Source: a virus | Reading direction: 5' to 3' (one strand) | Virus record (IMG/VR): IMGVR_UViG_3300045988_118131 | Length of the DNA: 64,000 nt | In this document: positions 858 through 63,592 of the stretch, piece by piece | Layout of the letters: each line of letters opens with the position of its first letter | How positions within the stretch are numbered: the first letter of the stretch is position 1 | Translations under genes and position numbers: made by a program | The notes under the pieces: generated by a model | The model's input: the letters and a program-made list of their open reading frames with translations, nothing else | Told to the model about the DNA's origin: nothing | Database searches by the model: none

Positions 858-2174
858 ATGAAGAAATTTTTATTGACATTTTTTATTGCATTCGTATCTT
901 TAATGACTTATGCTCAAGTAGACACATTGAAATTGATTCCTGGAAAGGAAATTATGTATGAATTGCAAATTGATACTGTAAAGTATGACTATCTAAAGAA
1001 AGTAGCTTGGTTTGCAGGATTTCCTGAAGTAGAAGCAACTTTTCAAGAGGGAAAGAAAACAGTATGTGCGACTCTAATCAAGGAAGACGATATTATAACT
1101 TTAAATGGCAAGAGTTATTTATATCTAAAGAGTATTCCTAAAGACTGGTTTGAAGTAGCTACCTGGGAGGGAGCTCCACATCCAAGAACTATTACTTTAT
1201 TTTATGGACATAGACTTTCGACTAAGTCTCCTGTAACTGATGAATTTGGAACGTGGTATAGTAGAAAGGATTTTGAAGGAATGACCCTTGATACCGTTAC
1301 TGTAGCTCATATTCTTAAACCTTTAGATGGTATTAAGGATTTCTATATTAATGGAGAGCAGTCCAAAGCTAGTTATGATATTCAAATTGGAGACACTCTT
1401 GAAATTAAATTTGATGTAGAAGAACCAATGGATATTGATAACTATATGTTAGTTAAAGACGAAGATGCCATTAAAGTTTCGGAGCAAGATTCGTTTATTT
1501 TAATTCCAACAGAATCAATAGAAGAAGTTGCGCCAGTAATTAGCAATGTTTTAGGGGATTATACAATAGAATCAAGAAAATTTAATATCAATGTATTTCC
1601 CAAATTTGCCATTGAAGAATTGTCTTATACAACCTTTAGAAAAGGGAATACAGAAAAGAAAGACTATACTAACACTCTGGAAATTAGTCCTGTTGTTTTA
1701 AATGGAGATTCAGTTGTTTTGGAAATCTTGACCAATGAAGATAAACTTGGACCATTTAAAAAGGAATCTTCCAAATTTTCTTGGAATAAAGATGGAAAAG
1801 ATTTGAATGATTCTCTTTATATGGTAGAGGACTGTAAACTTATTATTCCTAAATACAATAAGGGGACTATGGATGGTAAGTATAATTGCATTGTTACTAA
1901 TGGTAAAATTACATTTACTGTAACATTTGATGTAACATCAAATTACCCAACCTCTAATGAGACTATAGATACTAACGATTTTAGAGTACTATGTCAAGAT
2001 GGGCATGTGCTAATCAGCAATGCTGTTTCTAAACATTTAGTTATATCTGATACTTCTGGAAAAATGTTGGTAAATAAAGTAATTACATCTGATATGGAGC
2101 AAATTTCTGTTCCTAAAAATACTGTTCTATTTGTTACGATAGAAGGGAAAACTATTAAGACAGTTTCCAAGTAA
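858..2174 (+). CDS. secreted protein with a candidate type IX secretion (Por) C-terminal sorting domain
   Basis: N-terminal signal peptide MKKFLLTFFIAFVSLMTYAQ. The last ~70 aa (HLVISDTSGKMLVNKVITSDMEQISVPKNTVLFVTIEGKTIKTVSK) have the beta-strand pattern of Bacteroidota T9SS C-terminal domains. Confidence 0.55.
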   Translation: MKKFLLTFFIAFVSLMTYAQVDTLKLIPGKEIMYELQIDTVKYDYLKKVAWFAGFPEVEATFQEGKKTVCATLIKEDDIITLNGKSYLYLKSIPKDWFEVATWEGAPHPRTITLFYGHRLSTKSPVTDEFGTWYSRKDFEGMTLDTVTVAHILKPLDGIKDFYINGEQSKASYDIQIGDTLEIKFDVEEPMDIDNYMLVKDEDAIKVSEQDSFILIPTESIEEVAPVISNVLGDYTIESRKFNINVFPKFAIEELSYTTFRKGNTEKKDYTNTLEISPVVLNGDSVVLEILTNEDKLGPFKKESSKFSWNKDGKDLNDSLYMVEDCKLIIPKYNKGTMDGKYNCIVTNGKITFTVTFDVTSNYPTSNETIDTNDFRVLCQDGHVLISNAVSKHLVISDTSGKMLVNKVITSDMEQISVPKNTVLFVTIEGKTIKTVSK

Positions 2175-9781: not shown

Positions 9782-9854
9782 TCTTAGGTAGCTTCAATTG
9801 GTTAAAGCCCTGGATTTTACTAGGAGATTGTGGGTTCGAATCCCACCCTAAGAA
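9782..9854 (+). tRNA. tRNA-like gene with a non-canonical (6-nt) anticodon loop; identity undetermined
   Basis: Acceptor TCTTAGG/CCTAAGA, D arm GCTT-CAATTGGTTA-AAGC, T arm GTGGG-TTCGAAT-CCCAC. The only good anticodon stem, CCTGG/CTAGG, leaves the loop ATTTTA. No encoded CCA. Confidence 0.5.
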
Positions 9855-9875
9855 CAAATAATTAAAAACAAAAAA

Positions 9876-11518: not shown

Positions 11519-12193
11519 ATGGAAGTATTGAAAAATGAGCAGGCAGCTCAAAATGAAATAAAATCTGGAGCAGAGAAAGTAGAATCTGTTATTGAAAGTT
11601 CTCCAACCAATAAAGCAGTTATATTTCCTCCTGAAAAGAAAGCTAGGAGAAAGTGTACATTAAGTGATGAAATGGTAAAGATGCTTATTTACCAAATGGC
11701 TCATGAGCTTGAAAATCACAATATGTACAAAACATTTGCAGCTTATTTTTATCGTAACGATTTGTCTAAATTAGGTATTTATTATGATGAACGTGCTGCA
11801 GAAGAAAATGTACATCATCAGTGGATTTATAACTATCTAACCGAATGTGATGCTGAGTTCACGTATCCTCAAGTGCCGGCTATCAACTTGGATATTACTG
11901 ACCATGTAATGCCTTTCCGACTTACTGTGGATAAGGAAATTGAAACTACTTTGGGAATTAATCAAATAGTTAACAGGGCTGCAGAAGAAGGTGATTGGGC
12001 AACTTTTACATTCCTATTGGGAGACGATCCTAAAACTGGCAAACTGGTGCTAGAGCAGAGGGAGGAGGAATCTGTTTCAAGAACTATTCTTGGTATGGCA
12101 GAAATGGAAGGAAGCTGGCTAAGAAAACAAAACTCTATTTTGGAATTTTACAGAAATCCAGAATCTATTCAACCAGATAAAGACGAAGATTAA
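11519..12193 (+). CDS. ferritin-like superfamily protein
   Basis: Two helix pairs carrying MAHELENHNMY and ERAAEENVHHQW, which resembles the ferritin-like E...ExxH di-iron ligand pattern. Confidence 0.5.
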   Translation: MEVLKNEQAAQNEIKSGAEKVESVIESSPTNKAVIFPPEKKARRKCTLSDEMVKMLIYQMAHELENHNMYKTFAAYFYRNDLSKLGIYYDERAAEENVHHQWIYNYLTECDAEFTYPQVPAINLDITDHVMPFRLTVDKEIETTLGINQIVNRAAEEGDWATFTFLLGDDPKTGKLVLEQREEESVSRTILGMAEMEGSWLRKQNSILEFYRNPESIQPDKDED

Positions 12194-19787: not shown

Positions 19788-20690
19788 ATGAATAGAATTA
19801 ATTATGACCAAGAAAAAATTATAGAGCTTTATAATAAGGGCTATACAGATAGACAAATTGCAGAAACTTTAAACTATCCAGTTAATAATTTTGCTTCTTA
19901 TAGGAGGAAAAATTTAAAGCTTCCTCCTAATAAACCAAGGGAAACAGATATATTAACAGCTGACGAATTAGCTGTATTAATAGGAACTCTTTTAGGAGAT
20001 TCGTGTGTGCAGTATGTACATTCTAAATGTAAATATCCTTCACTGTCATTTACTCATTGCATTAAACAAAAAGAATACTTTTTAGTAAAATGCAAAAAAC
20101 TAGAAAAATTAATTTCATCATATAAAGAGTATAATTACGGAGAAAGAGCTACCTCTAAAGATAAGACGTTTCTCCATTGTACTGGTAAGAATATGAAATG
20201 CTTAGTGGATATTAGAAATGTCTTTTATCCTGATGGTATAAAAATTATACCAATAGAATTTCTAGAGAAACACATGACTAAAGAAAGTATTTACTACTTA
20301 ATGATGGATGATGGTAGTTATGATATACATACGAATAGCTACATATTAAATACACAATGTTTTACTAGAGAGAACTTAGAAAACTTTACTGAGTTTTTAA
20401 AAGTTAAGTTTGGTCTAGACTTTTCTGTAAAAAGTGATAATAGTCTTTATTTAAAACACTCATCTAATGAAAAGATGGTTGAAATACTACAAAAATATAA
20501 CATTTGTGATTCCATGAATTATAAGTGTTGTCTCAAAACTCCGTTAAACGGGGAAGTTCCAGATAATCTGGGTAATCCCGTGCTAAACCCTCAAGAAATT
20601 GAGGAAAATGCCGAACGACTAGAAGTGATGCCTAACACAAAAGGTGAGGCTATAAAATCTTCCACGAAAGCGGGGCACTACTTAAAGTAG
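19788..20690 (+). CDS. LAGLIDADG homing endonuclease with an N-terminal HTH
   Basis: Motifs LIGTLLGDSCV and YYLMMDDGSY. HTH-like YTDRQIAETLNYPVNNF. The C-terminal ~50 codons run through the ribozyme core sequence. Confidence 0.8.
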   Translation: MNRINYDQEKIIELYNKGYTDRQIAETLNYPVNNFASYRRKNLKLPPNKPRETDILTADELAVLIGTLLGDSCVQYVHSKCKYPSLSFTHCIKQKEYFLVKCKKLEKLISSYKEYNYGERATSKDKTFLHCTGKNMKCLVDIRNVFYPDGIKIIPIEFLEKHMTKESIYYLMMDDGSYDIHTNSYILNTQCFTRENLENFTEFLKVKFGLDFSVKSDNSLYLKHSSNEKMVEILQKYNICDSMNYKCCLKTPLNGEVPDNLGNPVLNPQEIEENAERLEVMPNTKGEAIKSSTKAGHYLK

Positions 20691-24525: not shown

Positions 24526-25344
24526 ATGAAAGACATTTTATTCGGAGCTATCATTGGAGATATGTGTGGCTCATCTTATGAAAGAAGTTTCAATAAAGAT
24601 ATGGAACTTGACAAAATTGAGTTAATAACTCCAGAAATGCATTTTACTGACGACACAGTTTGTAGTATAGCCATTGCTGATGCAATTATTAAAGATGTCG
24701 ATAATCCAAACTTTGAAGAATCTCTTATTAAATGGTGTAGGAAATATCCAAAAGCAGGATACGGTAAAATATTCTACGAATGGTTTATGTCTGTTGATAG
24801 TGAAAGACCTAACATCGAAAGTTATGGTAATGGGTCTGCAATGAGAGTAAGCTCTTGTGGATGGCTTCCTACTAAAGACGAGGCTCTGGAATTAGCTAGA
24901 CTTTCAGCTCTTCCTACTCATAGTCATCCGGCAGGAATTAGAGGAGCACAAGCAATTGCTGAATGTATATGGACAGCTTATAATAGTTGTAATGCAAAAG
25001 CATTAGTACTTGATATAGCTAAAAAGTATTATCCAGAATTTGATTTTGATGTTCCTATTTCAGAACTAAGAAAGGAATACACACTCGACTGTACTTGCCA
25101 AGGGTCTGTACCTCAAGCTATAAAATGTTATTGGGAATCTAATAGTTTTGAAGACTGTCTGAAGAGGGCTATTTGGCTTGGAGGGGATACTGATACAATA
25201 GCAGCTATGGCTGGTAGTATTGCCTATGCTGACTATTGGTATGTTCCAGCTTATTTGATTGAAGCAGCAAAGAATAATCTTCCGGATGAAATGTTGGAGG
25301 TAGTGGATGCGTTTGATGATTTTGTAACTTACGAAGAATGGTAA
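24526..25344 (+). CDS. ADP-ribosylglycohydrolase (ARH/DraG family)
   Basis: GAIIGDMCGSSYE, GNGSAMRVS and GGDTDTIAAMAGSIAYA match the conserved ARH metal-binding motifs. Confidence 0.8.
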   Translation: MKDILFGAIIGDMCGSSYERSFNKDMELDKIELITPEMHFTDDTVCSIAIADAIIKDVDNPNFEESLIKWCRKYPKAGYGKIFYEWFMSVDSERPNIESYGNGSAMRVSSCGWLPTKDEALELARLSALPTHSHPAGIRGAQAIAECIWTAYNSCNAKALVLDIAKKYYPEFDFDVPISELRKEYTLDCTCQGSVPQAIKCYWESNSFEDCLKRAIWLGGDTDTIAAMAGSIAYADYWYVPAYLIEAAKNNLPDEMLEVVDAFDDFVTYEEW

Positions 25345-36589: not shown

Positions 36590-36770
36590 ATTGGATACCT
36601 ATCCTTGTTTAAAATCGTATAATAAAATTATAGTACTATTCACAGATAACAATACAGGAACTTGCGTACATAGCGATGATCCAGATGTATGTGTTGGAGC
36701 ATATTCAGACGACTGGAGAGAATCTGAATTTATATCGTTTAATGGAAAAATTATATTAAAAAATGAATAA
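36555..36770 (+). CDS. hypothetical protein
   Basis: ORF track. Confidence 0.4.
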   Translation: MINSIIIQPVIKLDTYPCLKSYNKIIVLFTDNNTGTCVHSDDPDVCVGAYSDDWRESEFISFNGKIILKNE

Positions 36771-37479
36771 AGTACTTATACTTCCCGATATTCATGGGAG
36801 AACATTTTGGAAATACGCTTTAGAGCATATTGATGAATTTGATAAAGTAATCTTTCTTGGAGATTATCTTGATCCTTATCCACATGAGGAAATTACTTTT
36901 GATGAATCTGTAGAAAATTTTAAAGAAATTCTAGAATTTAAAAAGAATAATATAGACAAAGTTGAATTACTTATAGGTAATCACGATTGTCATTATATCT
37001 GGTTAGATTTTATGGATTGTAGTCGCCTAAATAGGTCTAGGAGAAAGGAAATGAATAAACTCTATAATGATAATTATGAGTTATTCAGGATAGCTTATCT
37101 ACTTAATGATAAATATTTATTCTCTCATGCTGGAGTATATAAAGAATGGCTAGCAGCAAACTCTATAGAATTAAATGATTTTCTTGATAAGCCTATTTCA
37201 TTTTGGAATGGGACTTACAATACATTTCTAGAGGACCTCAGCTATTACCGAGGAGGAAATAATCTAGCAGGAAGTATAGTGTGGGCTGATATAAGGGAGT
37301 CTCTAACTCAATCTCTTTTAGATGGTTATTATCAAATAGTTGGGCATACCCAAATGGAAGAGTTTCCATATCTTACTAATTCTATAGCCTGTCTGGATGT
37401 TAGGAGACCTTTTGTGTTAGATTTAGATAAAGAAATTATTACAAATATTAACGGAATAGAATATAAGATATATGATTAA
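36763..37479 (+). CDS. calcineurin-like metallophosphoesterase (Ser/Thr phosphatase-like)
   Basis: ILPDIHGR, LGDYLD, GNHD, SHAG, VGHT. Confidence 0.7.
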   Translation: MNKVLILPDIHGRTFWKYALEHIDEFDKVIFLGDYLDPYPHEEITFDESVENFKEILEFKKNNIDKVELLIGNHDCHYIWLDFMDCSRLNRSRRKEMNKLYNDNYELFRIAYLLNDKYLFSHAGVYKEWLAANSIELNDFLDKPISFWNGTYNTFLEDLSYYRGGNNLAGSIVWADIRESLTQSLLDGYYQIVGHTQMEEFPYLTNSIACLDVRRPFVLDLDKEIITNINGIEYKIYD

Positions 37480-38686: not shown

Positions 38687-38916
38687 TTAGGAAAAACCCG
38701 AAAGAAACAAGCCCAAAGGAGCCTATCAAAACTGTACCTGTTTTAGAAATAGAAGATATAGAGTATGTAGAAATAGAAAGCAATTTATATGCTTATGTTG
38801 CGTATAACGCAAATGGACCACTATATATTTCTACTAATATTGAGTCTATAAAAGAATACTCTAAGAGAACTAAAGCTAAAGATGTTAAGTATAAGAAAAT
38901 TAAATTTAAACTATGA
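38683..38916 (+). CDS. hypothetical protein
   Basis: ORF track. ATGA coupling at both ends. Confidence 0.45.
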   Translation: MIRKNPKETSPKEPIKTVPVLEIEDIEYVEIESNLYAYVAYNANGPLYISTNIESIKEYSKRTKAKDVKYKKIKFKL

Positions 38917-40118
38917 ACCAAGACTATTTAATATCTAAGGATAGTAAAGGAAAAATAAGAGTAGTAAACATATCTTATGATTGGGATAAAGACTTAAATG
39001 GATATGTTATTAGAAGATTTACAAGTCAGTATGGAGGAAAGATTACTACTCAACCTATAATTCTTGTAGATAAAGGTAAAGGAATTGGAAAAGCCAGAAG
39101 AACAGTATCAGAACAAGCTAAATTAGAGTACGATTCTAGGGTAAATAAATATATGGATAAGGGATATAAAAAACTCCCTAAATCCATAGATTTGTATACA
39201 AAGGAGGAGTTAGACGCTTTGTTACCGGAAGAAACTACTGACTCTGAGGGAAACTTAAAACCTATGCTAGCAAAGGACTTTCACGATGTAGCTACATCTG
39301 TCTTAGAAAAACAATGGTGGTATGCTAGTAGAAAAATTGACGGAGTTAGGTGTTTAATGTTTGTAAAAGACGGAGAAATACATACTTCTTCAAGAGGAGG
39401 TAAAAATTATGATGCCTCAACATATCATATTACTTGTAATCCTGAACTTAAGAGATTTATGTTGGATAATCCGACACTCATTTTAGATGGTGAATTATAT
39501 ATTCACGGATATTCTTTACAGACATTAAGTGGATTAGCTAGACTAAAGAAGGAAACAGACAAATGTGACGAGCTTCAATATTATATATATGATATAGTAG
39601 ATACTAGTAAAACATTTGAAGAGCGTCTTGAGGTTCTTGACCATATAAAGGATGAACTCCAACTTGATTTTGATCCTAATAAAACATTTGAAAATGGAGA
39701 TTTACAAATTCAAATGGTTCCTCATATTAAAGTAGAAGGCTGGGTTCAAATAAAGAAAATTCATGATTCCTATGTAAAAGAAGGATTTGAAGGAGCAGTT
39801 ATAAGACGTCCGGACAAAAAGTATGGAGTCAATAAACGAACCAATGATATGGTTAAGGTAAAAGAGTATCAAGATGGAGAATTTAAAATTATTGGATTCT
39901 CTGAAGGGCTCAGACCAGAAGATATGGTATTCGTCTGTGTAACTGAAGATGGAAAAGAGTTTGAAGCAAAGCCTATTGGTCCTAGAGAGTTGAAGCATGA
40001 ATATTTAGAAAGAATGAGTGAGATTGTTGGTAAAATGGCAACTGTAAAATACTTCAGTTTTTCTGACGGAGGAACTCCGACACAACCAGTACTAAAATGT
40101 ATAAGGGATTATGAGTAA
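38913..40118 (+). CDS. lig: ATP-dependent DNA ligase
   Basis: Motif I SRKIDGVR, motif III LDGELY, motif IV EGAVIR, motif V MVKVKE, plus an OB-fold-sized C-terminus. Confidence 0.75.
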   Translation: MNQDYLISKDSKGKIRVVNISYDWDKDLNGYVIRRFTSQYGGKITTQPIILVDKGKGIGKARRTVSEQAKLEYDSRVNKYMDKGYKKLPKSIDLYTKEELDALLPEETTDSEGNLKPMLAKDFHDVATSVLEKQWWYASRKIDGVRCLMFVKDGEIHTSSRGGKNYDASTYHITCNPELKRFMLDNPTLILDGELYIHGYSLQTLSGLARLKKETDKCDELQYYIYDIVDTSKTFEERLEVLDHIKDELQLDFDPNKTFENGDLQIQMVPHIKVEGWVQIKKIHDSYVKEGFEGAVIRRPDKKYGVNKRTNDMVKVKEYQDGEFKIIGFSEGLRPEDMVFVCVTEDGKEFEAKPIGPRELKHEYLERMSEIVGKMATVKYFSFSDGGTPTQPVLKCIRDYE

Positions 40119-47827: not shown

Positions 47828-49404
47828 TTGATCTACTTAGTAAGTAATCAAGCTGAGTTGTTTAAATCTGACAGGTATTCTAAAATTTCTGTAGAAAAAT
47901 CTTTAGAAATTATGGATTCCTGGAAGGTTGTACAACTAGATACTGAAACCGAAGGATTAGACGTATATACTAAGAGATTATTAACCGTGCAGTTTGGTAC
48001 AAGGGATATTCAAATAGTTGTAGATTGTACTAGTGTAGATATTTTACAGTATAAATCTTTCTTAGAATCCAATAGAGTGTTTCTGGGGTGGAACTTACTG
48101 TTTGACCTCAAATTCTTATATCATCATAATATATATCCTAATAATATATATGACGGTATGTTAGCTGAGAAGCTAATTTGGTTGGGATATCCTGCAGGTA
48201 TGAAGGGTATGAGCTTGAAAGATACTGCTTTTAGATATTTAGGCATAGACATAGACAAAACCATTCGAGGTAAAATTAACCAAACTGGATTAACTGAAGA
48301 TGTTATTGTTTATGCTGCAGGAGATGTTCAACCCCTAGAAGACATTAAAGATGCTCAAGAAAAGGAAATACAAGCTCAAGAATTAGAAACTGCTGTATCA
48401 TTCGAAAACGAATTTGTAAAATGCTTAGCTTATATTGAGTATTGTGGTGTTAGATTAGATGTTCCCAGATGGAAGGCTAAAATGGAGAATGATTTAGAGA
48501 GATTAAATAAAGCCGAAAAAGCCTTAAATGATTGGGTAGTAAGCTATTATAAAGAACATTTACATGATCCTGATTCTACTAATACCTTAGAAGTTGAAGT
48601 AGATTTTTGTTTAGAGGAAAGAGTAGGCTCTAAAGTAATAAAACATGCTATAGAGTATAAAACATATACTCCAATAGAAGCTCCTAGAACAATAACTGGA
48701 CCTGATTGTGTATCATATTTGAAGCAGAAACTTAAGGTAGTATTCCCTTTTGTCAAAATAAATCTTCAGGGAGACTTATTTTCCGGATTTGATACAGAAC
48801 CTAAGTGTTGTATAAATTGGTCTAGCTCTAAGCAGGTTATTCCCTTGTTTGAACTACTAGGATTTAATCTTATAACATTTGATAAGGTTACTAAGAAGAA
48901 AAAGAAGTCTGTAGATGCTAAGATTATTAAGGCACAGTTAGATGTGTCCCCAATAGCAGCATTATATTTAGACTATCAAGGTGCTTCAAAAGTGGTATCC
49001 ACATATGGACAAAATTGGTTAAATGCAATTAACCCTGTTACTGGTAGAATTCACGCTAATTTTTATCAGTTAGGAGCAGACACAGCTAGATTGTCCTGCG
49101 GAGGTGGTACTGCTAATGTCAACGTTCAAAACTTACCGCACGATCCAGAAACTAGAGCGTGTTTTATTCCAGAAGATGGTAACGATTGGATCTCTGCGGA
49201 TTATCAAGGTCAGGAAAGTCGCATTATTGCATCAGTTTCCAATGATACAGCTATGTTAGACCTGTTTATTAACGGTTGTGGAGATGTCCATTCTCTAGTA
49301 GCTAAAATGGCATACTCACATGTAATTGGAGATACTCCCATCGAGGAAATTAAAGAAAAATTTCCTCAGTATCGTCAAGAAGCTAAAGGAATTGAGTTCG
49401 CAGT
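47828..49404 (+). CDS. polA: family A DNA polymerase with 3'-5' exonuclease domain, exon 1
   Basis: Exo I VQLDTETEGL, Exo II GWNLLFDLKFL, Exo III YAAGDV, pol motif A ISADYQGQESRIIA, and the first half of motif B RQEAKGIEFA. TTG start in the track. Confidence 0.8.
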
Positions 49405-49474
49405 GAGCCTACTTATTTAACATTAATTAACATAAATTTGCCATAAAACAATTCGCAATTAATCAAAAATTTAT

Positions 49475-49482
49475 TATCTTTG
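49475..49482 (+). promoter_or_regulatory. -7 promoter box (TATCTTTG) inside the intron, upstream of the homing endonuclease ORF
   Basis: Matches TAnnTTTG, 23 nt upstream of ATG 49505. Confidence 0.4.
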
Positions 49483-49504
49483 TGCGTAATTTAAAAATAT
49501 AATT

Positions 49505-50326
49505 ATGAACGAGAGAGAATTGGAAATTGCAGAATTGTATAAACAAGGCGTGTCCTTAAAAGAAATTTGTGCTAAGCATCATTGTAGCACAAATACAATT
49601 AGTAAGATAATAGATAAATTTAACATACCTAGGAGAACTAAAAGAAAGTCTAATAAAGATTTTAGTAAATTTTTTGATTTAAATGCAAAAGAAACTCAAT
49701 ATTGGATTGGATACATCTGTGCTGACGGAAGTATTCAATACGATGAGAAAAATAGGGTATATAAGGTATCTTTACATAGTAAAGAAGAAGAGCCTATAAA
49801 CAATTTCATAAAATATTTTGGCGAAGATACAGTCAGTCTACATAAACGTAAAACTGGAATATTAGAAGCATATATAAATTCCAAAGAACTTTGCGAATAT
49901 TTTATCAATATTTTAAATATTACTCCTAGAAAATCTTTGACATTAAATCCTAATATAGAATTTACTACTAATTTTATCTTGGGCTATTTTGATGGGGATG
50001 GATGTATCAGAAACAGTTCTGATACTCAAACTAGATATGAGTGTAATATAACCTGTGGAAATAGAGAATTTTTAGAAAAAATTAAATCTATACTAGACTC
50101 TGAAGGTATTTACTCTATTATATACAAACATACTGATTGTGACGCTTATAAAATAAGAATTGATAGAAAAGAAGAATCTAGAAAATTTTATAAGTTCCTT
50201 TATAAGGATAAAGTAGTATGTTTATCTAGAAAGTTAAATAATTTTGCTGCCCTCTTTGGAAACTTAGAGGATACATCATCGAGTGAATTGCTGGAATCTG
50301 TAGGAGAATCAGCAGCCAAGCATTAA
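49505..50326 (+). CDS. LAGLIDADG homing endonuclease with an N-terminal HTH
   Basis: WIGYICADGSI and ILGYFDGDGCI. HTH-like VSLKEICAKHHCSTNTISKII. Confidence 0.85.
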   Translation: MNERELEIAELYKQGVSLKEICAKHHCSTNTISKIIDKFNIPRRTKRKSNKDFSKFFDLNAKETQYWIGYICADGSIQYDEKNRVYKVSLHSKEEEPINNFIKYFGEDTVSLHKRKTGILEAYINSKELCEYFINILNITPRKSLTLNPNIEFTTNFILGYFDGDGCIRNSSDTQTRYECNITCGNREFLEKIKSILDSEGIYSIIYKHTDCDAYKIRIDRKEESRKFYKFLYKDKVVCLSRKLNNFAALFGNLEDTSSSELLESVGESAAKH

Positions 50327-50498
50327 AACTAAAAAGTTAATGAAGGTTCAACGACTAACGATTGACACTTCTTTGAAGAATATAATATCGACACGAGCGC
50401 TCGACACCTAAATCTTTTACAGACATGGTGAAGATATAGTCTAGCCTATATGGTAACATATAGAGTCTCGGATAAAGAGCCGAGAGTTAATACAAGCG

Positions 50499-51111
50499 AA
50501 ATTACGGAGGAGACGCTAATACTATTATGAACAATAAAGGTATTCCTCTTTCAGAAGCTAAGGCTATTTATGAGAACTTTATGAAAGGTTTTCCTGGAGT
50601 AGCTAAATATCAAGACTATTGTAGAAGAGAAGTCATGAGGAAAGGATATATTCTATTAAATCCAGTCACCAAACACAGAGCACATATTTATGACTTTGAG
50701 GAATTAGATAGAATACAGAAAAAGTTCAATGATCCAGAATTTTGGGATTACTACAGAGAAATGAAGAAATACGATCCTAGTTGTGAAACTGTAAAGGATG
50801 TACAAAATTATTTTAGAAGAAAATCAGCCTCTGAAAAACAATCTATTAATTATAGAATTCAAAATAGAGGAGCTATGATGTTTAAACTGGCTTCAATAAA
50901 GCTCTTCAACTATTTGAAGAAGAATAATCTACTAGGAGTTGTAAAGTATTGTATTCCAGTCCATGACGAGATCAACTTAGAGTGTCCTAAAGCAATGTCA
51001 GAGGAAATATCTAAGATATTAGTAAAATGTATGGAACAAGGAGCAAAACCATTTTGCACTAGACTTCCTTTAGGAGCAGATGTGTCAGTAGGAGAACATT
51101 GGATTCATTAA
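50499..51111 (+). CDS. polA: family A DNA polymerase, exon 2
   Basis: The frame is open from 50491. NYGG completes motif B. Motif C is IPVHDEINLE. Confidence 0.8.
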
Positions 51112-52426: not shown

Positions 52427-53435
52427 AAAATTATACTTTGTGTCGCCTAATGGTAACATTAGGGCAATAACCCAGTGAATTGCTGGAAAGCTAAAATTCA
52501 ATGTTTATTAATAAAATTTGATAGAATCATGCTAATCAGCAGCCAAGCCAACCTTTAACAAAGTTGGAAGGTTCAGAGACTAATAGTATTATATAGTAAG
52601 AACAAGCTAAATGTTTGATTATGACTAAAGAAGAAAAAGCAACGTTAATTGGATTAGTGCTAGGTGATGGTCACTTAGCGTGTAGTAAGTATAAAAATTG
52701 CAATGCTTTCCACCAAGAGTTTTCTTTAATCCATTCTATAGAACAAAGAGAATATCTTGAATGGAAGGTTAATTTAATACATTCCATTTTAGGAGGACAT
52801 AAGCCGTCTATTATAGAGTTTAATAATAATGGATACAAAGGTGTTAAAGCTATGAAGTCTCATAGATATTTTAGGGTTTTATATAAATATTTATACAAAA
52901 ATGGAATTAAAACAATCCCATTAAAAGCCCTTAATAGATTAACTCCTCTGGCTATTGCTATATGGTGGATGGATGATGGCTCTCTATGTAAGAAAGTTAG
53001 AAATGGTAAAGTTCACGCATGGGAATTATATCTAAATACCTATTTGAGTAAGGAAGAAAATCAAACTATAATTGATTACTTTCAAAGTAAATGGAATGTT
53101 AAATGGAATCTTAATTTGAGTAAAGGTAAATACAGATTAAGATGTTCTACAAGAGAAGGTAGAAAATTTCTAAGTATTATAAGACCTATTGTATCTCAAA
53201 TTAAGTGTATGCAATATAAATGCTTGGAAATCTAACTAACAGTTGAAACTATGAATTATATAGAAGAATATAAAAAATGTATCAATGATTTTGATTATTG
53301 GTTAAAACATTATGTTAGGTTTATAGAATATAATACTGACACGAGTGCTGGGCATTCTGTAAAGGATGATGATATAGTCCGATACTCCTTTGAAAAGAGG
53401 AGAGTTAAGGATAAAGAGCCTTAACACAACGATTG
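52427..53435 (+). mobile_element. group I intron with a LAGLIDADG homing endonuclease, inserted in the ThyX RHR motif
   Basis: 5' splice site after T52426 and terminal G53435. Splicing gives EFVRH|RVFSFAQESTRY, which restores RHRxxSxxxxSxR. Core elements: AGTGAATTGCTGGAA, CAGCAGCCAAGC, GGTTCAGAGACTAA, GATATAGTCC, a GAAA-capped hairpin, and the GTTAAGG-ATAAAGAG-CCTTAAC hairpin. Confidence 0.75.
52615..53235 (+). CDS. LAGLIDADG homing endonuclease
   Basis: LIGLVLGDGHL and AIWWMDDGSL. The track start is TTG 52615; the first ATG is at 52621. Confidence 0.85.
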   Translation: MIMTKEEKATLIGLVLGDGHLACSKYKNCNAFHQEFSLIHSIEQREYLEWKVNLIHSILGGHKPSIIEFNNNGYKGVKAMKSHRYFRVLYKYLYKNGIKTIPLKALNRLTPLAIAIWWMDDGSLCKKVRNGKVHAWELYLNTYLSKEENQTIIDYFQSKWNVKWNLNLSKGKYRLRCSTREGRKFLSIIRPIVSQIKCMQYKCLEI

Positions 53436-55563: not shown

Positions 55564-56154
55564 ATGGGAAAACTGTTAAAATTACCTTACGATAAAGTCT
55601 TCTTTACGTCTGACACTCATTTTGGACATTCCAATATAATTAAATACTGTAATAGACCATTTAAAGATAAAGACGAGATGAATGAAACTCTTATTTCTAA
55701 TTGGAATAAAGTAGTTCCAGAAGATGGAATAGTAATTCATTGTGGAGACTTTGCTTTTGCTGGAGGAGATAAGATAAAGCAGATATTAGAGCGTTTAAAT
55801 GGTCATAAACATTTAGTGTTAGGAAATCATGACCATCAAATTAATTTTCCAAATAATTATCCCTACTTTGAAACTGTGGGAGATTTTGGTTTAATTAGAG
55901 TTATTGGAGATACAGAAATTCCTTCTCAAGACATTTTCTGTTGCCATTATCCAATGATAACATGGGATCAGGCTCATAGAGGAAGTTGGAACATATTTGG
56001 TCATATTCATACCTGTAAAGGGCAAAATATGATAACAAATAAACAAAGTCCGAATCAATACGATGTTGGAGTAGATCAGAACGATTATACTCCTGTGTCA
56101 TTTCAACAATTAAAAGAGATTATAACAAAACAAAATTTGTATGGAATTTTATAA
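55564..56154 (+). CDS. calcineurin-like metallophosphoesterase
   Basis: FTSDTHFGH, CGDF, LGNHD, GHIH. Confidence 0.7.
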   Translation: MGKLLKLPYDKVFFTSDTHFGHSNIIKYCNRPFKDKDEMNETLISNWNKVVPEDGIVIHCGDFAFAGGDKIKQILERLNGHKHLVLGNHDHQINFPNNYPYFETVGDFGLIRVIGDTEIPSQDIFCCHYPMITWDQAHRGSWNIFGHIHTCKGQNMITNKQSPNQYDVGVDQNDYTPVSFQQLKEIITKQNLYGIL

Positions 56155-58688: not shown

Positions 58689-58844
58689 ATGGCATTCTTA
58701 TATTATATGGCACTCGTACTTCTGATAATATTTGCAATAATTGGAGTGATGCCATTTATACTTTTTATTATAATATTATTAAAATTAGGAATACATATAA
58801 AATTACCAAATGAACGCATTAGTAATAGTAGATCCTCAAAATGA
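58689..58844 (+). CDS. small membrane protein (51 aa), speculative
   Basis: ATG 58689 to TGA 58842-58844. Very hydrophobic. Overlaps the pncA start by 35 nt. Confidence 0.25.
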   Translation: MAFLYYMALVLLIIFAIIGVMPFILFIIILLKLGIHIKLPNERISNSRSSK

Positions 58845-59391
58845 TTTTATAAACGGATCATTAGCAGTTCCGGGAGCTGAAAAAGCAATTAATAATACAA
58901 TAGAATTTATAAAGGAACACAAAGAAGATCTTGCTTATATAGCAATAACGGCAGATTGGCATCCTTATGACCATTGTTCGTTTAAAGAATATGGAGGTAC
59001 GTGGGAATCCCACTGTGTTATGTATAGTGCTGGAGCAAGTATTTATCAACCACTTCTGGAAGTTATTAAAGAGACTGGAATTTTTTGTAAAGTCTGGAAT
59101 AAAGGAACATATTCTGATAGAGAAGAATACAGCATTTTTGACAGAGAAGAAGGACGAGAGTTTCTTGACGAACTTAACGATAGAACTACAATAGATGCAA
59201 GTAAAGAAGAGTACGGAGAAATTTATGTAGCAGGATTAGCTGGAGACTTTTGTGTATTCCACACAGTAAAAGATTTAGTTGATGAAGGATTAGGAGATTG
59301 GATGCATATTCTTTTAGATGGTGTAGCCTCTATTGATGGTGGAGTTAAATTGAAAAATCTTCTGAAGGAATGTGGTATATCATCCCTCTAA
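58810..59391 (+). CDS. pncA: nicotinamidase/pyrazinamidase (isochorismatase family)
   Basis: Aligns by eye with E. coli PncA: LVIVDPQNDF, ADWHPYDHCSF, WESHCVMYSAGA, KGTYSDREEYSIF, and GLAGDFCV (catalytic Cys). Confidence 0.8.
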   Translation: MNALVIVDPQNDFINGSLAVPGAEKAINNTIEFIKEHKEDLAYIAITADWHPYDHCSFKEYGGTWESHCVMYSAGASIYQPLLEVIKETGIFCKVWNKGTYSDREEYSIFDREEGREFLDELNDRTTIDASKEEYGEIYVAGLAGDFCVFHTVKDLVDEGLGDWMHILLDGVASIDGGVKLKNLLKECGISSL

Positions 59392-59558
59392 TAATTTGCC
59401 TACTAGGAGGAATGTTTATTCCTAATATAGTAGATAAGAATGATTGTGAGGAAAGACTAATATATTCTATATTAGTTATTCTCCCACTCGTTAATATAGT
59501 AATTTCAGTTGTATGCATAGTATATACTATTGCTTATATTTTAGAATTAACAGAATAG
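59370..59558 (+). CDS. small membrane protein
   Basis: ORF track. Two hydrophobic helices. Confidence 0.4.
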   Translation: MWYIIPLIICLLGGMFIPNIVDKNDCEERLIYSILVILPLVNIVISVVCIVYTIAYILELTE

Positions 59559-59561
59559 ACA

Positions 59562-60734
59562 ATGACAACTTCAATTTTAGACAACGATTTATATAAGTTT
59601 ACAACTTCTTACGCATATATGAAAATGTTCCCTCAAGCGACGGGGACATTTAAATTTTATGACAGAAATCATACAAAATATACTAAAGAAGAAGTCGCAA
59701 AAATTATACAAAGAGTATGGCATCTTCAGAATTTAGCTCTTACAGATGAAGAAGCTAATTTTATGAAAAATGCTTGTTATTTTATTCCTACATATTATTT
59801 TGATTGGTTGAAATCATTTAGGTTTAACCCTAAGCAATTAAACATAACTTATAATGAAGAGACTAAAGAGCTGGGAATAGAAGCCACAGGGTTATTATAT
59901 GAAGTTACTCTATGGGAAGTACCTATTTTAGCTATTATTAGCGAAGTCCAGACTTTAGAACAAGGTCCAATAGACACTTTATACACTATACGTAAAACTG
60001 TTGAGAAAGCTACTATAGCAGAACGCAACAACTTAAAATTTAGTGAATTTGGAACACGACGTAGAGCTTCGTTTAGTGTACAGGATTTGGTTGTAGAAAC
60101 TTTAGCAAAGAATTGTCCTACTTCATTAACTGGTACTTCTAATTGTTTCTTTGCAATGAAATACCACCTTACTCCTATAGGCACTCATCCTCACGAATGG
60201 TTTATGTTTCATGGAGCTATGTATGGATACGAACATGCCAACTATATGGCTTTAGAAAATTGGATCAACGTGTATGATGGAGATTTAGGTATTGCCTTAT
60301 CCGATACTTACACTTCTGACGTCTTCTTCAAGAACTTTTCAAAGAAACACGCTAAGTTATACGATGGTATCAGACAGGATAGTGGAGATCCCTTTAGGTT
60401 TATCGAAAAAGCTATAAACAGGTATAAAGAATTAAAAGTAAATCCTATAACCAAGACAATTATATTTTCAGATGCTTTAACTATGGATAAAGCTGTAGAA
60501 ATTAACAATAATTGCATTGGACGAATTGGTTGTGCATTTGGTATTGGAACCCATTTAACTAATGACTGTGGTTTAAAGCCGGCTAATATTGTGATGAAAC
60601 TTACAGAATGTAGAATGAATAGTAAACAGCCATCAAAACACTGTGTTAAACTATCTGATGCTGAAGGAAAGCATATGGGAGATCCAGATGAAGTTAGTCT
60701 AGCTTTATTAACTATAAACCAACATTATAAATAA
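59562..60734 (+). CDS. pncB: nicotinate phosphoribosyltransferase
   Basis: LDNDLYKFT, SEFGTRRR, LTGTSN and IGTHPHEWF match the conserved PncB motifs. Confidence 0.8.
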   Translation: MTTSILDNDLYKFTTSYAYMKMFPQATGTFKFYDRNHTKYTKEEVAKIIQRVWHLQNLALTDEEANFMKNACYFIPTYYFDWLKSFRFNPKQLNITYNEETKELGIEATGLLYEVTLWEVPILAIISEVQTLEQGPIDTLYTIRKTVEKATIAERNNLKFSEFGTRRRASFSVQDLVVETLAKNCPTSLTGTSNCFFAMKYHLTPIGTHPHEWFMFHGAMYGYEHANYMALENWINVYDGDLGIALSDTYTSDVFFKNFSKKHAKLYDGIRQDSGDPFRFIEKAINRYKELKVNPITKTIIFSDALTMDKAVEINNNCIGRIGCAFGIGTHLTNDCGLKPANIVMKLTECRMNSKQPSKHCVKLSDAEGKHMGDPDEVSLALLTINQHYK

Positions 60735-60983
60735 ATGAAAGTAACTGTTAAACAATTAATAAGAGACGACAGTTTCCAAGCTGAAAGACTACTAATTGAT
60801 GGTAAAGAAGTAATGAGTGTGTGCGACCTATGGGAGTGTCCAGAAGATGCTATTTTAGGAAGGGATTTAAATTCCATGGAAGAAGTAGCCGATCTTATGT
60901 ACCTGGCATATCAAGCAGGTAAAAAGGGGGAAGTATGGGATAGAGAAACTATTGAATACGAAGAAGAAGAATTTTATAATTAA
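60735..60983 (+). CDS. hypothetical acidic protein
   Basis: ORF track. Confidence 0.45.
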   Translation: MKVTVKQLIRDDSFQAERLLIDGKEVMSVCDLWECPEDAILGRDLNSMEEVADLMYLAYQAGKKGEVWDRETIEYEEEEFYN

Positions 60984-60990
60984 ATTTATT

Positions 60991-61941
60991 ATGGATAAGA
61001 AATTAAATTACGAAACAGTATTTGACACTTTAGTAGAGAAAACTCAAGAGTATGTGGAATCAAACCATCTAAAGGCTATGATACTTGGAATTAGTGGTGG
61101 TATAGACTCTACTGTTGTTGCTGCTATTTGTCATGAGGTTAGTAAGAAGACTGACATTCCTCTTATAGGCAGGAGTCTTCCTATATATAAACATGCAGAT
61201 GCAACATTTAATGAATCTATTCTGGTAGGAAGAGCTTTCTGTGATGATTTTCGAATATGCCCTATGACTAGATTGTATTTAGCAGCACTTAAAGAAGTAT
61301 ACCAAGTAGAGAATATGGAACGTCATGAATCTACATATTCTATTGAGGAACTGGAACAAGCCAATGGTCAGACTAAAGTAGCTAATGGCAATATTCAAGC
61401 TAGACTTAGAATGATGTTCTTATATAACCTTGCTTCAATTCATAAAGGACTAGTAATGAGTACAGATAATCAAACTGAATATCAGCTTGGATTCTGGACT
61501 ATTCATGGTGATGTAGGTGACTTCGATCCTCTACAGGATTTGTGGAAGACTGAAGTCTATGGATTGGCTGAATATCTACGTGATATGTATCTTGAACTTT
61601 ACTGTGCAGCCACTTTGGATAAACATGAAGAATCTAGAGAATGGGAACTCTATTGGAAAGCAAAGTTTGAAGCCATGGAACACTCTATAGCCCTTACTCC
61701 TACCGATGGTCTTGGTATCAGTAACAGTGACCTTGATCAGATTGGAGCTAAAAGTTATGCTGAGGTTGATGATATACTTCAAACTATGCTTTTATATAAA
61801 AATCCAGAAAGAGAGAAGTGGGATATTTTATATAATAAGTATGGAGAAGAAGTAGTAAACAAAGTTTGGAATAGACATCTTGCTTCTGAATTTAAAAGAA
61901 AGGATCTACCTGTAGTAATAGAAAGAGAGTTGTATATTTAA
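60991..61941 (+). CDS. nadE: NH3-dependent NAD+ synthetase
   Basis: PP-loop ILGISGGIDSTVVA. Also STDNQTEYQLGFWTIHGDVGDFDPLQDLWKTEVYGLAEYL. No glutaminase domain. Start moved to ATG 60991 (track gives 60952). Confidence 0.8.
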   Translation: MDKKLNYETVFDTLVEKTQEYVESNHLKAMILGISGGIDSTVVAAICHEVSKKTDIPLIGRSLPIYKHADATFNESILVGRAFCDDFRICPMTRLYLAALKEVYQVENMERHESTYSIEELEQANGQTKVANGNIQARLRMMFLYNLASIHKGLVMSTDNQTEYQLGFWTIHGDVGDFDPLQDLWKTEVYGLAEYLRDMYLELYCAATLDKHEESREWELYWKAKFEAMEHSIALTPTDGLGISNSDLDQIGAKSYAEVDDILQTMLLYKNPEREKWDILYNKYGEEVVNKVWNRHLASEFKRKDLPVVIERELYI

Positions 61942-61963
61942 CGTACTTATATAAGTAATATAA

Positions 61964-62476
61964 ATGAAAGTAATAAATTTATTTGCTGGACCTGGAAGCG
62001 GTAAGTCTACAACCTGTGCTGGAGTATTTAGTAAATTAAAATTAGCAGGAATAAATTGTGAAATGGCATTAGAGTATGCCAAGGATAAAGTGTGGGAACA
62101 ATCCTTCCACACTTTAGACAATCAAATCTATATATTTGGAAAACAGTTACATAGGCTATGGAGATTAAAGGATCAGGTAGATGTAGTAATTACTGATTCT
62201 CCGTTATTATTTTCTATAATTTACGATAAAACTTGTAATGAGAAATTTGGAGCTCTTGTTTTGGATCAATTTAATCAATTTGAAAATATCAACTACTTCA
62301 TAACGAGAGGTAACACATATAATCCAAAGGGAAGAATGCAAACTCTTGAAGAATCTATGGATTTAGACTGTAAAATAGCATCATTATTGGAGAGTAATAA
62401 TATTCCTTTCAATTTTGTTAATAAAATGGATGCAGTTGATATAATTTGTGAAAACACTTTAAAATTTGATTTATGA
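61964..62476 (+). CDS. P-loop NTPase (AAA_28/NadR-kinase-like; possible ribosylnicotinamide or nucleotide kinase)
   Basis: Walker A FAGPGSGKSTT, EYAKD, Walker B-like VVITDSP. 170 aa. Embedded between nadE and nadD. Confidence 0.4.
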   Translation: MKVINLFAGPGSGKSTTCAGVFSKLKLAGINCEMALEYAKDKVWEQSFHTLDNQIYIFGKQLHRLWRLKDQVDVVITDSPLLFSIIYDKTCNEKFGALVLDQFNQFENINYFITRGNTYNPKGRMQTLEESMDLDCKIASLLESNNIPFNFVNKMDAVDIICENTLKFDL

Positions 62477-63099
62477 AAATAGGTTTATTCTTAGGATCCT
62501 TTGACCCAATTCATATAGGACATATATCTATTATATCTTCAGTTTTAAATGCTGGATTTGTAGACAAAGTAATAGTTATTCCAGCCTGGCATAACCCATT
62601 TAAAGAGCATAGCCCAGCCTCTTTTATGAAAAGGTGGTTAATGTGCTATCAATCATTTAAAGACATTCCAAATGTTCAATGTTCTCAGATAGAAAGCACA
62701 CTACACGATAGGTTACAAATAGATAGGATTCCTACCTATAAAGTGTTGGACGTATATAGAAATGATCCTTCTTTAAAAAACGGGGAGATATACATAATTA
62801 CTACTTCTGAGACATTCTCTGAAATTCCATCTTGGGAAAATGGAGATGAAATATTAAAGTCCAATAATTTTGTTATTATCAAAGTAGAGGGTCATGATAT
62901 TGATTGGAAATTAGCCAAAAAAGTAGAAACTTATGGTAATAAATGTATTTGTGACACCAGTCTAGAGTTTATAGATATAAGTTCTACTAAAATTAGAAAT
63001 ATGATAAAGGAAAATAAAATTATTTCTCCTTATGTACCTAATGATGCTCAGTTAATAATTAAAAAATTTGATTTATATAATGAAAAACTTTCCAATTAA
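62473..63099 (+). CDS. nadD: nicotinate-nucleotide adenylyltransferase
   Basis: GSFDPIHIGH, the (H/T)xGH motif, and the ISSTKIRN motif. Confidence 0.8.
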   Translation: MKIGLFLGSFDPIHIGHISIISSVLNAGFVDKVIVIPAWHNPFKEHSPASFMKRWLMCYQSFKDIPNVQCSQIESTLHDRLQIDRIPTYKVLDVYRNDPSLKNGEIYIITTSETFSEIPSWENGDEILKSNNFVIIKVEGHDIDWKLAKKVETYGNKCICDTSLEFIDISSTKIRNMIKENKIISPYVPNDAQLIIKKFDLYNEKLSN

Positions 63100-63592
63100 A
63101 GTACAAGAAGATACCATTATTAATGGCGAAAATATGAAGGGTAAAACCTTTTGGGTTAGTAGATCCTGTGCGGTAGCTGTATTCGTATTTGCGAATATAA
63201 AAGGAATCTGGTATGTTTTAGCCAATCAAAGAGGTAAAGGATGTCCAGATTATCAAGGGTATTGGAATTGTCCTTGTGGTTATGTAGACTACAATGAAAC
63301 TATCCGAGAAGCTGCATATAGAGAATTGTGGGAAGAATCTATGCTTAATAAATCAGATGTTAAATTGAGACAAGTAGGCTTTAATGATAACCCAAATGAT
63401 GATAATAAGCAAAATATCACATTCAGATTGGTGGGACTAATAGACACTAATTCTTTACCAGAAATTTATTGTGAATTTTCTGAGCCAGATGAAATAGAAA
63501 ATCTAGCATGGATTCCTTTAGCTGAAATTGGTATATACGACTGGGCATTTAACCACGATAAACTAATCTTCGAAATGTTTAGACAATTATAA
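63080..63592 (+). CDS. Nudix hydrolase
   Basis: Nudix box GYVDYNETIREAAYRELWEES. The track start is TTG 63068; ATG 63080 is preferred. Confidence 0.75.
   Translation: MKNFPIKVQEDTIINGENMKGKTFWVSRSCAVAVFVFANIKGIWYVLANQRGKGCPDYQGYWNCPCGYVDYNETIREAAYRELWEESMLNKSDVKLRQVGFNDNPNDDNKQNITFRLVGLIDTNSLPEIYCEFSEPDEIENLAWIPLAEIGIYDWAFNHDKLIFEMFRQL

Follow-up and report, generated by a model that had tools for sequence, protein, structure and literature searches.

The DNA examined here is a stretch of 64 000 nucleotides (nt) from the IMG/VR virus record IMGVR_UViG_3300045988_118131, termed the window in what follows. Towards its end lie six genes that a preliminary description, made from the sequence letters, had read as a complete deamidating (Preiss-Handler) salvage cluster for nicotinamide adenine dinucleotide (NAD+): those of the nicotinamidase PncA, the nicotinate phosphoribosyltransferase PncB, the NAD+ synthetase NadE and the adenylyltransferase NadD, with a kinase-like P-loop protein of the AAA_28 family and a Nudix hydrolase. 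All six open reading frames (ORFs) are present on the + strand (Table 1), as is every signature motif that had been quoted for them, and two start sites are revised. NadE most likely begins at ATG 60991, which gene callers use on six contigs, and less likely at TTG 60952; the Nudix protein most likely begins at ATG 63080, because the consensus of its homologues opens with MKNFPI. Spacing between neighbouring genes is −35 to +22 nt across the cluster. No + strand terminators were found between the cluster genes, and a scan for sigma-70 promoters was uninformative (30 sites against 34.5 expected, with a tool that has no Bacteroidota promoter models). The cluster genes are presumably co-transcribed.

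Table 1. Genes and other features of the cluster, followed by further features of the window. aa, amino acids; NaMN, nicotinic acid mononucleotide; NaAD, nicotinic acid adenine dinucleotide; PRPP, phosphoribosyl pyrophosphate.
Feature	Position	Strand	Predicted reaction	Family or remark
PncA-like nicotinamidase, 193 aa	58810-59391	+	nicotinamide to nicotinate + NH3	Isochorismatase
Small hydrophobic ORF, 62 aa	59370-59558	+		no Pfam match; gene-called on six contigs
PncB nicotinate phosphoribosyltransferase, 390 aa	59562-60734	+	nicotinate + PRPP to NaMN	NAPRTase
orf82, 82 aa	60735-60983	+		no Pfam match; phrog_19569 'unknown function'
NadE, NH3-dependent NAD+ synthetase, 316 aa	60991-61941	+	NaAD to NAD+	TIGR00552
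AAA_28 P-loop kinase-like protein, 170 aa	61964-62476	+		AAA_28
NadD-type nicotinate (nicotinamide) mononucleotide adenylyltransferase, 208 aa	62473-63099	+	NaMN + ATP to NaAD	CTP_transf_like
Nudix hydrolase, 170 aa	63080-63592	+		NUDIX
14-bp direct repeat ATAAATGAAAGTAA, copy 1	60731-60744	+		over orf82 start codon
14-bp direct repeat ATAAATGAAAGTAA, copy 2	61960-61973	+		over AAA_28 start codon
Metallophosphoesterase, 238 aa	57971-58687	+		Metallophos, 40.7 bits; neighbour upstream of PncA
Calcineurin-like metallophosphoesterase	36763-37479
Calcineurin-like metallophosphoesterase	55564-56154
ADP-ribosylglycohydrolase	24526-25344			Pfam 120 bits, PHROGs 177 bits
DNA ligase	38913-40118			DNA_ligase_A_M
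ORF once described as MazG-like	141-446			no Pfam match at E <= 0.01
PolA, whole region	47828-51111			split in two ORFs
PolA, first ORF	47828-49420
PolA, second ORF	50527-51111
LAGLIDADG homing endonuclease in PolA	49505-50326
Group I intron in PolA	50226-50463			Rfam 83 bits
Homing endonuclease	19788-20690			LAGLIDADG_2
Homing endonuclease	52615-53235			LAGLIDADG_2
438-aa protein	858-2174			DUF6383 (59.6 bits) at C-terminal end
tRNA gene	9782-9855			Rfam 42.9 bits
Ferritin-like protein	11519-12193

Family membership was assigned by Pfam and NCBIfam profile searches, the equivalog cut-offs of the latter being given in bits, and residue conservation was counted over 49–72 distinct homologues per enzyme. 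Structures were compared through sequence matches in the PDB and, for the AAA_28 and Nudix proteins, through AlphaFold2 models and Foldseek. PncA belongs to the Pfam family Isochorismatase (PF00857, E = 1.5e-12), and its sole NCBIfam match is to nicotinamidase/pyrazinamidase NF008623 (67.6 bits; cut-off 174). Six of its seven best PDB matches are chains named nicotinamidase/pyrazinamidase, the other being 3R2J (an 'alpha/beta-hydrolase-like protein'), and the best of all is the PncA of P. horikoshii, 1ILW (E = 4.4e-21). Residues D8, D49, H51, H68, K98 and C148 have conserved counterparts in 1ILW and are invariant in 56–58 of the 58 phage homologues; we take D8, K98 and C148 to be the catalytic triad and D49, H51 and H68 to form the metal site. 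PncB, with the domains NAPRTase and NAPRTase_N, passes two equivalog cut-offs (TIGR01514, 437 bits against 269.55; NF003704, 446 bits against 379) and has the motifs FGTRRR, GTSN and GTHPHEW, which show little or no variation among 65 homologues. Against the PHROG family of NAMPT it scores just 56 bits.

NadE scores twice its cut-off (TIGR00552, 129.7 bits against 63.65) and carries the PP-loop SGGIDS, of which the pattern SGGxDS is kept in about 70 of 72 homologues. Since it consists of a single NAD_synthase domain and lacks a glutaminase domain, it should depend on NH3. NadD is recognized by CTP_transf_like (55 bits) and scores just under the cut-off of TIGR00482 (104.2 against 112.45 bits). 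Its best PDB matches are all NadD enzymes (E about 1e-9), and the alignment with solved NaMN adenylyltransferases spans both HxGH, found in 58 of 58 homologues, and ISSTxxR (SSTxIR in 55 of the 58). In NadD enzymes of solved structure, main-chain contacts largely determine which substrate is accepted. The substrate of the phage enzyme would be NaMN rather than nicotinamide mononucleotide (NMN).

The profiles thus agree with the assignments first proposed for the four enzymes, PncB and NadE at equivalog level; neither membership in families outside NAD+ metabolism nor loss of catalytic residues was seen in the profile and alignment checks. PncA, PncB, NadD and NadE together constitute a four-step route from nicotinamide to NAD+, and the statement that these four activities suffice for the conversion agrees with the known pathway (PMC9316036). 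It is highly probable, judging from the sequences, that the four phage enzymes act as such a pathway.

A survey of phage contigs for the co-occurrence of pncA, pncB, nadD and nadE, proposed with the preliminary description, was made by scanning IMG/VR with PncB, which returned 80 loci. The order Metallophos-PncA-PncB-NadE-NadD-Nudix is kept in about 70 viral contigs of 60–190 kb, at overall amino acid identities of 33–60%. By enzyme, identities to the window proteins in these contigs are 35–49% for PncA, 56–69% for PncB, 51–81% for NadE and 37–58% for the Nudix protein; NadD is 32–40% identical, rising to 73% in L010 and L011, the nearest clade. Because the gene order recurs in so many diverged contigs, the cluster is not a product of chance, and the conserved catalytic residues together with the order suggest active enzymes that have long been kept together. 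A related PncA-PncB-NadE set is found in contigs of 158–435 kb (L068, L072, L073, L076 and L077), where PncA and PncB are together and NadE lies a few kb off; two of them give a weak NadD match. The 410,106-bp scaffold L186 (ONIZ01000001.1), filed as 'uncultured Firmicutes bacterium RUG343', has the length and the PncA-PncB-NadE arrangement of viral contig L072 (IMGVR_UViG_2799112330_000002) and probably represents a jumbo phage that was binned with a bacterial metagenome-assembled genome.

The Nudix protein matches NUDIX with 57.5 bits, and weakly the NCBIfam models NadM-Nudix and NtrR. Its AlphaFold2 model has a predicted local distance difference test score (pLDDT) of 91.6. The top Foldseek match of the model is the ADP-ribose-bound Nudix domain of NrtR, 3GZ8 (E = 1.3e-9; root-mean-square deviation 2.1–2.4 Å), which scores about 25-fold better than the next target. 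All 49 homologues share residues G71, E77, R85, E86, E89 and E90, which indicates an intact catalytic box. The Nudix signature of NrtR is degenerate, unlike the box of the phage protein. The window allele has M92 at a position where 47 of the 49 homologues have G. On the evidence of the model, the protein is probably an ADP-ribose pyrophosphatase.

The AAA_28 protein is less readily placed. Its Pfam match is marginal (29.7 bits; cut-off 27), its PHROG match is to a 'thymidylate kinase' (43 bits), and no sequence relative was found in the PDB. With the AlphaFold2 model (pLDDT 87.7), Foldseek returns NadR, thymidine monophosphate (TMP) kinases and deoxynucleoside kinases about equally, at template-modelling scores of 0.6–0.69 (0.61 for NadR); the Pfam family presumably includes the NadR kinase domain. 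There are about 2,700 homologues. A profile survey showed a Preiss-Handler gene at a distance of 8 kb or less in six of 80 viral loci that encode such homologues, and elsewhere their neighbours are heterogeneous and unrelated. The gene is truncated in strain L006 and absent from most clusters of the phage family. The preliminary description had the Nudix and kinase-like genes feed ADP-ribose or nicotinamide riboside into the pathway; the match to 3GZ8 is in keeping with an ADP-ribose-type Nudix protein, and the few NAD-linked loci and generic P-loop fold, with no PDB sequence match, led to rejection of the kinase-like protein as a nicotinamide-riboside kinase or core member. The protein is treated here as a putative mobile accessory kinase and not as a core pathway gene.

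An AAA_28 protein 66% identical to that of the window is found in a separate lineage of jumbo size (L089–L091, contigs up to 385,640 bp), in the order PncA, 169-aa protein, 60-aa protein, PncB, AAA_28, 37-aa protein, 290-aa protein, NadE and, later, YqeY. On account of this cluster, a role of AAA_28 as nicotinamide-riboside kinase is retained at low probability. No recognizable NadD was found in the L089–L091 clusters, and the 169- and 290-aa proteins have no Pfam match; one of the two may hide a non-orthologous adenylyltransferase. YqeY is encoded downstream of the NAD genes in both lineages.

Might the genes form no single pathway at all? PncA could then hydrolyse another amide, NadD could be an NMN adenylyltransferase fed by AAA_28 as a riboside kinase, and the Nudix protein could clean up oxidized nucleotides or decap RNA. 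PncA and NadD do fall under their NCBIfam equivalog cut-offs, a cryo-EM structure of NadR is among the top fold matches of AAA_28, the close AAA_28 relative of L089–L091 accompanies PncA, PncB and NadE where NadD is not recognizable, and the best PDB matches of the Nudix protein in a phmmer search are NUDT15 and MutT. However, nicotinamidases/pyrazinamidases dominate the PDB matches of PncA, whose active- and metal-site residues are kept, and PncB and NadE are unambiguous; the only sensible link between these two is NaMN to NaAD, a step that needs NadD activity. Moreover, five enzymes travel together over deep divergence, whereas AAA_28 is missing from most clusters, 74 of its 80 loci are without Preiss-Handler genes within 8 kb, and TMP and deoxynucleoside kinase folds match it equally well. 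A set of unconnected enzymes is therefore very unlikely.

The cluster belongs to a phage genome of about 174 kb, represented by near-identical contigs of 173,044, 173,571 and 174,797 bp and an IMG/VR contig of 175,639 bp from independent samples. As this is below the 200 kb threshold, the phage is not a jumbo phage. At least 95 data blocks contain the identical PncB protein, with contigs reaching 173–175 kb. The window itself is a 64-kb block on one strand, with genes for replication and nucleotide metabolism: superfamily 1 and 2 helicases, a DnaB-like helicase, a Toprim primase, a class II ribonucleotide reductase (RNR), an ATP-dependent ligase, PNKP, PolA, Thy1 and the ADP-ribosylglycohydrolase. 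PolA is 45–53% identical to PolA of Crassvirales, the top matches of the DnaB-like helicase are from crAss-like and Bacteroidota phages, and the GC content is 30–35%. Zeta crAss-like phages (proposed Echekviridae) have been described with genomes of 155–190 kb, 28–37% GC, PolA or PolB, a rich block of replication and deoxynucleotide genes and hosts of the Bacteroidales type (PMC7886860, PMC12386605). The size, GC content, PolA and replication/deoxynucleotide genes found here match that description. The window is probably from a Zeta-type crAss-like phage of Bacteroidales, a placement that draws on size, GC, gene content, PolA and DnaB; the block of structural genes lies outside the window. By megablast no close deposited phage genome was found; only a 188-bp piece matched, in two unannotated faecal scaffolds. 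The Zeta phage paper makes no mention of NAD, nicotin-, Nudix, SIR2 or Thoeris.

These data also bear on whether the DNA is bacterial, either host genes or a mis-assembled chimera. The 53–57% identity of PncB to chromosomal pncB products of Bacteroidales could suggest this. Against it, the contigs of 173,044–175,639 bp were recovered in almost the same form from independent samples and from IMG/VR, the neighbouring genes are all phage replication genes with PolA and DnaB closest to crAss-like phages, and bacterial pncB loci are without the cluster. The phage origin assumed at the outset holds, and a bacterial one is improbable in the extreme.

The origin of the cluster was approached by a profile scan of the genomes of 185,579 species. 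The closest bacterial pncB genes are those of Bacteroides, Parabacteroides and Phocaeicola, some of them in complete chromosomes. The bacterial gene is solitary at all 14 Bacteroidales loci and at 75 of the 80 loci overall. This implies that the cluster was assembled in phages, and capture of a host operon, considered as a source, was ruled out on the same ground. The presence of pncB in Bacteroidales chromosomes also means that the likely hosts already own this gene.

Closely related strains differ within and around the cluster. Strain L004 lacks exactly 1,229 bp, comprising orf82 and nadE, between the two copies of the direct repeat ATAAATGAAAGTAA; at the junction, within L004 11140-11200, one copy of the repeat is left, and the strain amounts to a natural nadE knockout. 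In L008, orf82 is merged with NadE into a 401-aa protein. Relatives of the small ORF between pncA and pncB were found by tblastn in L003–L009 only. Two Nudix alleles, with 99% and 59% protein identity to that of the window, occur in strains that are otherwise about 97–99% identical across the cluster (L005, L006, L007 and L009), and at the nucleotide level the match to L010 forms a mosaic, with 77% identity in pncB and 85–91% in nadE, AAA_28 and nadD. The two alleles and the mosaic identities indicate recombination within the cluster. Gain, loss and allele swaps at the strain level characterize the region, as they do accessory or anti-defence islands.

Downstream, about 0.8–4.5 kb past the end of the window in L003–L009 (e.g. 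L006 14797-18587), is an island with genes for a canonical SIR2 (143 bits), NADAR (129 bits), two unknown ORFs, a Tad3 homologue, HAD_SAK_2, YqeY and a deoxynucleoside monophosphate kinase. The Tad3 homologue, of 258 aa and about 3 kb downstream of the cluster, matches the Pfam family 'Type I Thoeris inhibitor Tad3' with 118.6 bits; proteins of the Tad3 type reportedly block the site at which the defence protein processes NAD+. NADAR is variably present, in L006 and L008 only, and in the contig survey SIR2 and Tad3 are confined to this phage and its nearest relatives. Two genes within the window had been linked to the same theme at first. The ADP-ribosylglycohydrolase is well supported, whereas the ORF at the start of the window that had been likened to MazG found no Pfam family. 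The DNA ligase is ATP-dependent and not NAD+-dependent, so that ligation is not the reason for which the phage needs NAD+.

The metallophosphoesterase gene just upstream of pncA keeps that position in about 70 contigs, and its best PDB match is the phosphodiesterase MPPED2 (E = 4e-7). It was considered as a dedicated member of the cluster, hydrolysing ADP-ribose or cyclic ADP-ribose, and rejected: the window has two more Metallophos genes, the clusters of the jumbo lineage are without it, and it is MPPED2-like. It is conceivable, from its sequence, that the protein degrades ADP-ribose-derived or cyclic-nucleotide signals.

Other features of the window concern mobile elements and the host. PolA is split in two by an insert that consists of a LAGLIDADG homing endonuclease gene and a group I intron. 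The polymerase is whole (701 aa) in L003, L004, L006 and L007, and in L008 the insert is elsewhere, giving 412 aa, endonuclease and 297 aa. Two more homing endonuclease genes are present; the second is missing from the matching region of L003, and the window strain therefore has extra mobile insertions. The tRNA gene was assigned no anticodon by ARAGORN ('tt' at position 35). It may encode an unusual or suppressor tRNA, and suppressor tRNAs have been reported in Zeta crAss-like phages. A ferritin-like protein and a 438-aa protein with a C-terminal DUF6383 are also encoded; DUF6383, which we take to be a Bacteroidota-type C-terminal domain, would agree with the host assignment.

The preliminary description had also proposed that the cluster represents a third phage route to NAD+. 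This was pre-empted. In PMC11662467 (Microbiome 2024), 174 gut jumbo phages with complete salvage or Preiss-Handler pathways are reported, with clustered pncB-nadD-nadE (e.g. Kuafu_71); phage pncA is mentioned, and counter-defence against Sir2 is suggested without experiments. The genome paper of phage X1 (2026) lists pncB, nadD and nadE and likewise suggests counter-defence, and the name NARP3 has been given to a PnuC plus NadR-like route. The window phage resembles the NAD-jumbo phages of PMC11662467 in its clustered pncB, nadD and nadE, in coming from gut metagenomes, in the Bacteroidota among their hosts and in the pairing with NAD+-consuming enzymes; like them, it has the full gene set for at least one pathway of NAD+ synthesis. 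It differs in its smaller, crAss-like genome, in the start from nicotinamide through pncA, in the conserved Nudix gene and in an order kept across a non-jumbo lineage. A Rheinheimera phage 'pncB' (PMC6715854) was considered as further prior art and set aside: its product has 496 aa, adjoins prs and a macro-domain gene and looks like NARP1-AP rather than a true PncB. PHROGs include NAD-synthetase and NMN adenylyltransferase (NMNAT) families, and no annotated NAPRTase or nicotinamidase family was found there. GenBank phage records include 13 with PncB-like and 14 with PncA-like genes. The few records and the gaps in PHROGs indicate that these enzymes are rare among catalogued phages, and not unknown.

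Three phage NAD+ routes have been characterized. NARP1 (Adps and Namat) and NARP2 (NAMPT and NMNAT) are described as countering NAD+-depleting defence; for NARP2, abolition of aRES defence was shown by experiment. NARP3, a PnuC-like transporter with a NadR-like bifunctional enzyme, restores NAD+ depleted by Sir2-HerA (PMC13464706, 2026). The window does not have the composition of any of these: no Adps/PRPS-like protein, Namat, macro-domain, NAMPT, PnuC or NadR NMNAT-kinase fusion was found in it. The original NARP preprint makes no mention of pncA, pncB, nadE or nicotinic acid.

NARP2 (NadV/NatV of Vibrio phage KVP40) makes NAD+ from nicotinamide, PRPP and ATP by canonical salvage enzymes, as the window cluster would, and works whether or not NAD+ is depleted. 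In addition, NatV is a Nudix-like module fused to NMNAT, and the NadD and Nudix genes of the window are adjacent and overlap. NARP2, however, takes two amidated steps via NMN, whereas the window cluster would take four, which are deamidated and pass through nicotinate, NaMN and NaAD. The deamidating route costs more ATP than NARP2 and needs ammonia for NadE. As in NARP1 and NARP1-AP, products of NAD+ cleavage would be re-used; in contrast to NARP1, which directly re-ligates ADP-ribose-PP and nicotinamide, the window cluster is proposed to break ADP-ribose down. The resemblance to NARP3 lies in AAA_28, whose Pfam family presumably holds the NadR kinase domain, and is one of generic P-loop fold only; the precursor is nicotinamide, unlike the imported nicotinamide riboside of NARP3. 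Among bacteria, the pncA-pncB1-nadE operon of P. aeruginosa, which is up-regulated in infection by the jumbo phage PA5oct, clusters the same enzymes. The phage cluster adds nadD and the Nudix gene to what such bacterial operons contain, and in Bacteroidales pncB stands alone.

The following mechanism is proposed. PncA would hydrolyse nicotinamide to nicotinate, PncB would join nicotinate with PRPP into NaMN, NadD would adenylylate NaMN to NaAD, and the NH3-dependent NadE would amidate NaAD to NAD+. The Nudix enzyme most likely would cleave ADP-ribose to AMP and ribose-5-phosphate, from which the host would make ATP and PRPP. With the PncA route and the Nudix enzyme combined, both products of NAD+ cleavage would be recycled. 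Expressed in infection as one unit, the module would keep or restore the NAD+ pool independently of host regulation; the upkeep of NAD+ would sustain replication and probably blunt type I Thoeris and SIR2/TIR effectors. The timing of expression in infection and any benefit in counter-defence are what we infer from this scheme. In infected cells the module is likely to raise NAD+ or keep it up; that it measurably counters NADase defences has an even chance at best. The scheme as a whole, a phage-assembled operon for deamidating salvage of nicotinamide to NAD+ that sustains replication and probably blunts NAD+-depleting defences, is the reading favoured on balance.

Several points weigh against this reading, beyond the sub-cut-off scores of PncA and NadD. 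The preference of NadD for NaMN or NMN is not readable from sequence, and ADP-ribose as the substrate of the Nudix enzyme depends on one structural match, its best sequence matches being elsewhere. The window yielded no prs gene, and PRPP synthesis must be the host's. Tad3, SIR2 and NADAR are limited to the nearest relatives and hence cannot explain why the cluster is retained family-wide. The clean loss of nadE in L004 implies that, in some hosts, the phage can do without its own enzyme for at least one step. Finally, the family-wide presence of the cluster inside a replication and nucleotide-metabolism block resembles a core metabolic module more than a patchy anti-defence gene.

The last points raise the question of whether the module is purely metabolic. 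It might supply NAD+ for the redox reactions of RNR and ThyX and for the phage's own SIR2, ADP-ribosylglycohydrolase and NADAR, with PncA removing nicotinamide, a sirtuin inhibitor, and without a role against immunity. The placement in the one-strand block and the lineage-wide distribution agree with this, as does the phage's possession of a canonical sirtuin, NADAR and ADP-ribosylglycohydrolase; the 2024 jumbo-phage paper pairs NAD+ synthesis and use likewise (PMC11662467), and the nadE deletion suggests that the boost is quantitative and can be dispensed with. On the other hand, SIR2 and NADAR are found in nearest relatives only while the cluster is family-wide, and with an ATP-dependent ligase one classic need for NAD+ is missing. 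Five genes also seem costly for a plain top-up in hosts likely to own pncB. The nearby Tad3 homologue points to conflict with NAD+-processing immunity, and all three experimentally studied phage routes to NAD+ counter defence. A purely metabolic role is thus a serious, if rather doubtful, explanation. Counter-defence is plausible, given that Tad3 is a neighbour, that the hosts already have pncB and that NARP1–3 set a precedent. Family-wide conservation, a location among replication genes, the NAD+-related enzymes that the phage itself encodes and the viability of the strain without nadE speak for a housekeeping role, and either benefit may predominate.

Perhaps the cluster constitutes a fourth class of phage NAD+ reconstitution, in which the deamidating four-enzyme route and an ADP-ribose pyrophosphatase act, with a Tad3-type inhibitor, against Thoeris/SIR2 systems in Bacteroidales, and which is conserved in an abundant gut crAss-like lineage. 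This wider proposal is tentative. What is new here, relative to what is known, is the occurrence in a non-jumbo crAss-like lineage, a route that is complete from nicotinamide onwards, the conservation of a Nudix gene with it, the phage-specific assembly with deep conservation, and the Tad3 neighbourhood.

Rebuilding of NAD+ by phages is a recognized counter to defences that destroy NAD+, and all proven routes, NARP1–3, avoid the deamidated branch. The conservation of such a module throughout a large crAss-like lineage, crAss-like phages being among the most abundant human gut viruses, makes the remark in the jumbo-phage catalogue directly testable, and natural variants are at hand in the nadE-deleted strain and the two Nudix alleles. 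The Tad3 homologue beside the cluster would place metabolic and inhibitor-based counter-defence in one genome. If the module is only a housekeeping boost, it is an ordinary auxiliary metabolic gene cluster. More broadly, viruses of the gut may contribute to the turnover of niacin and nicotinamide. Should the cluster prove to be a fourth class of NAD+ reconstitution, phages would turn gut nicotinamide into metabolites of the nicotinate pathway, a flux already recognized as relevant to the NAD+ supply of mammals (PMC9981684).

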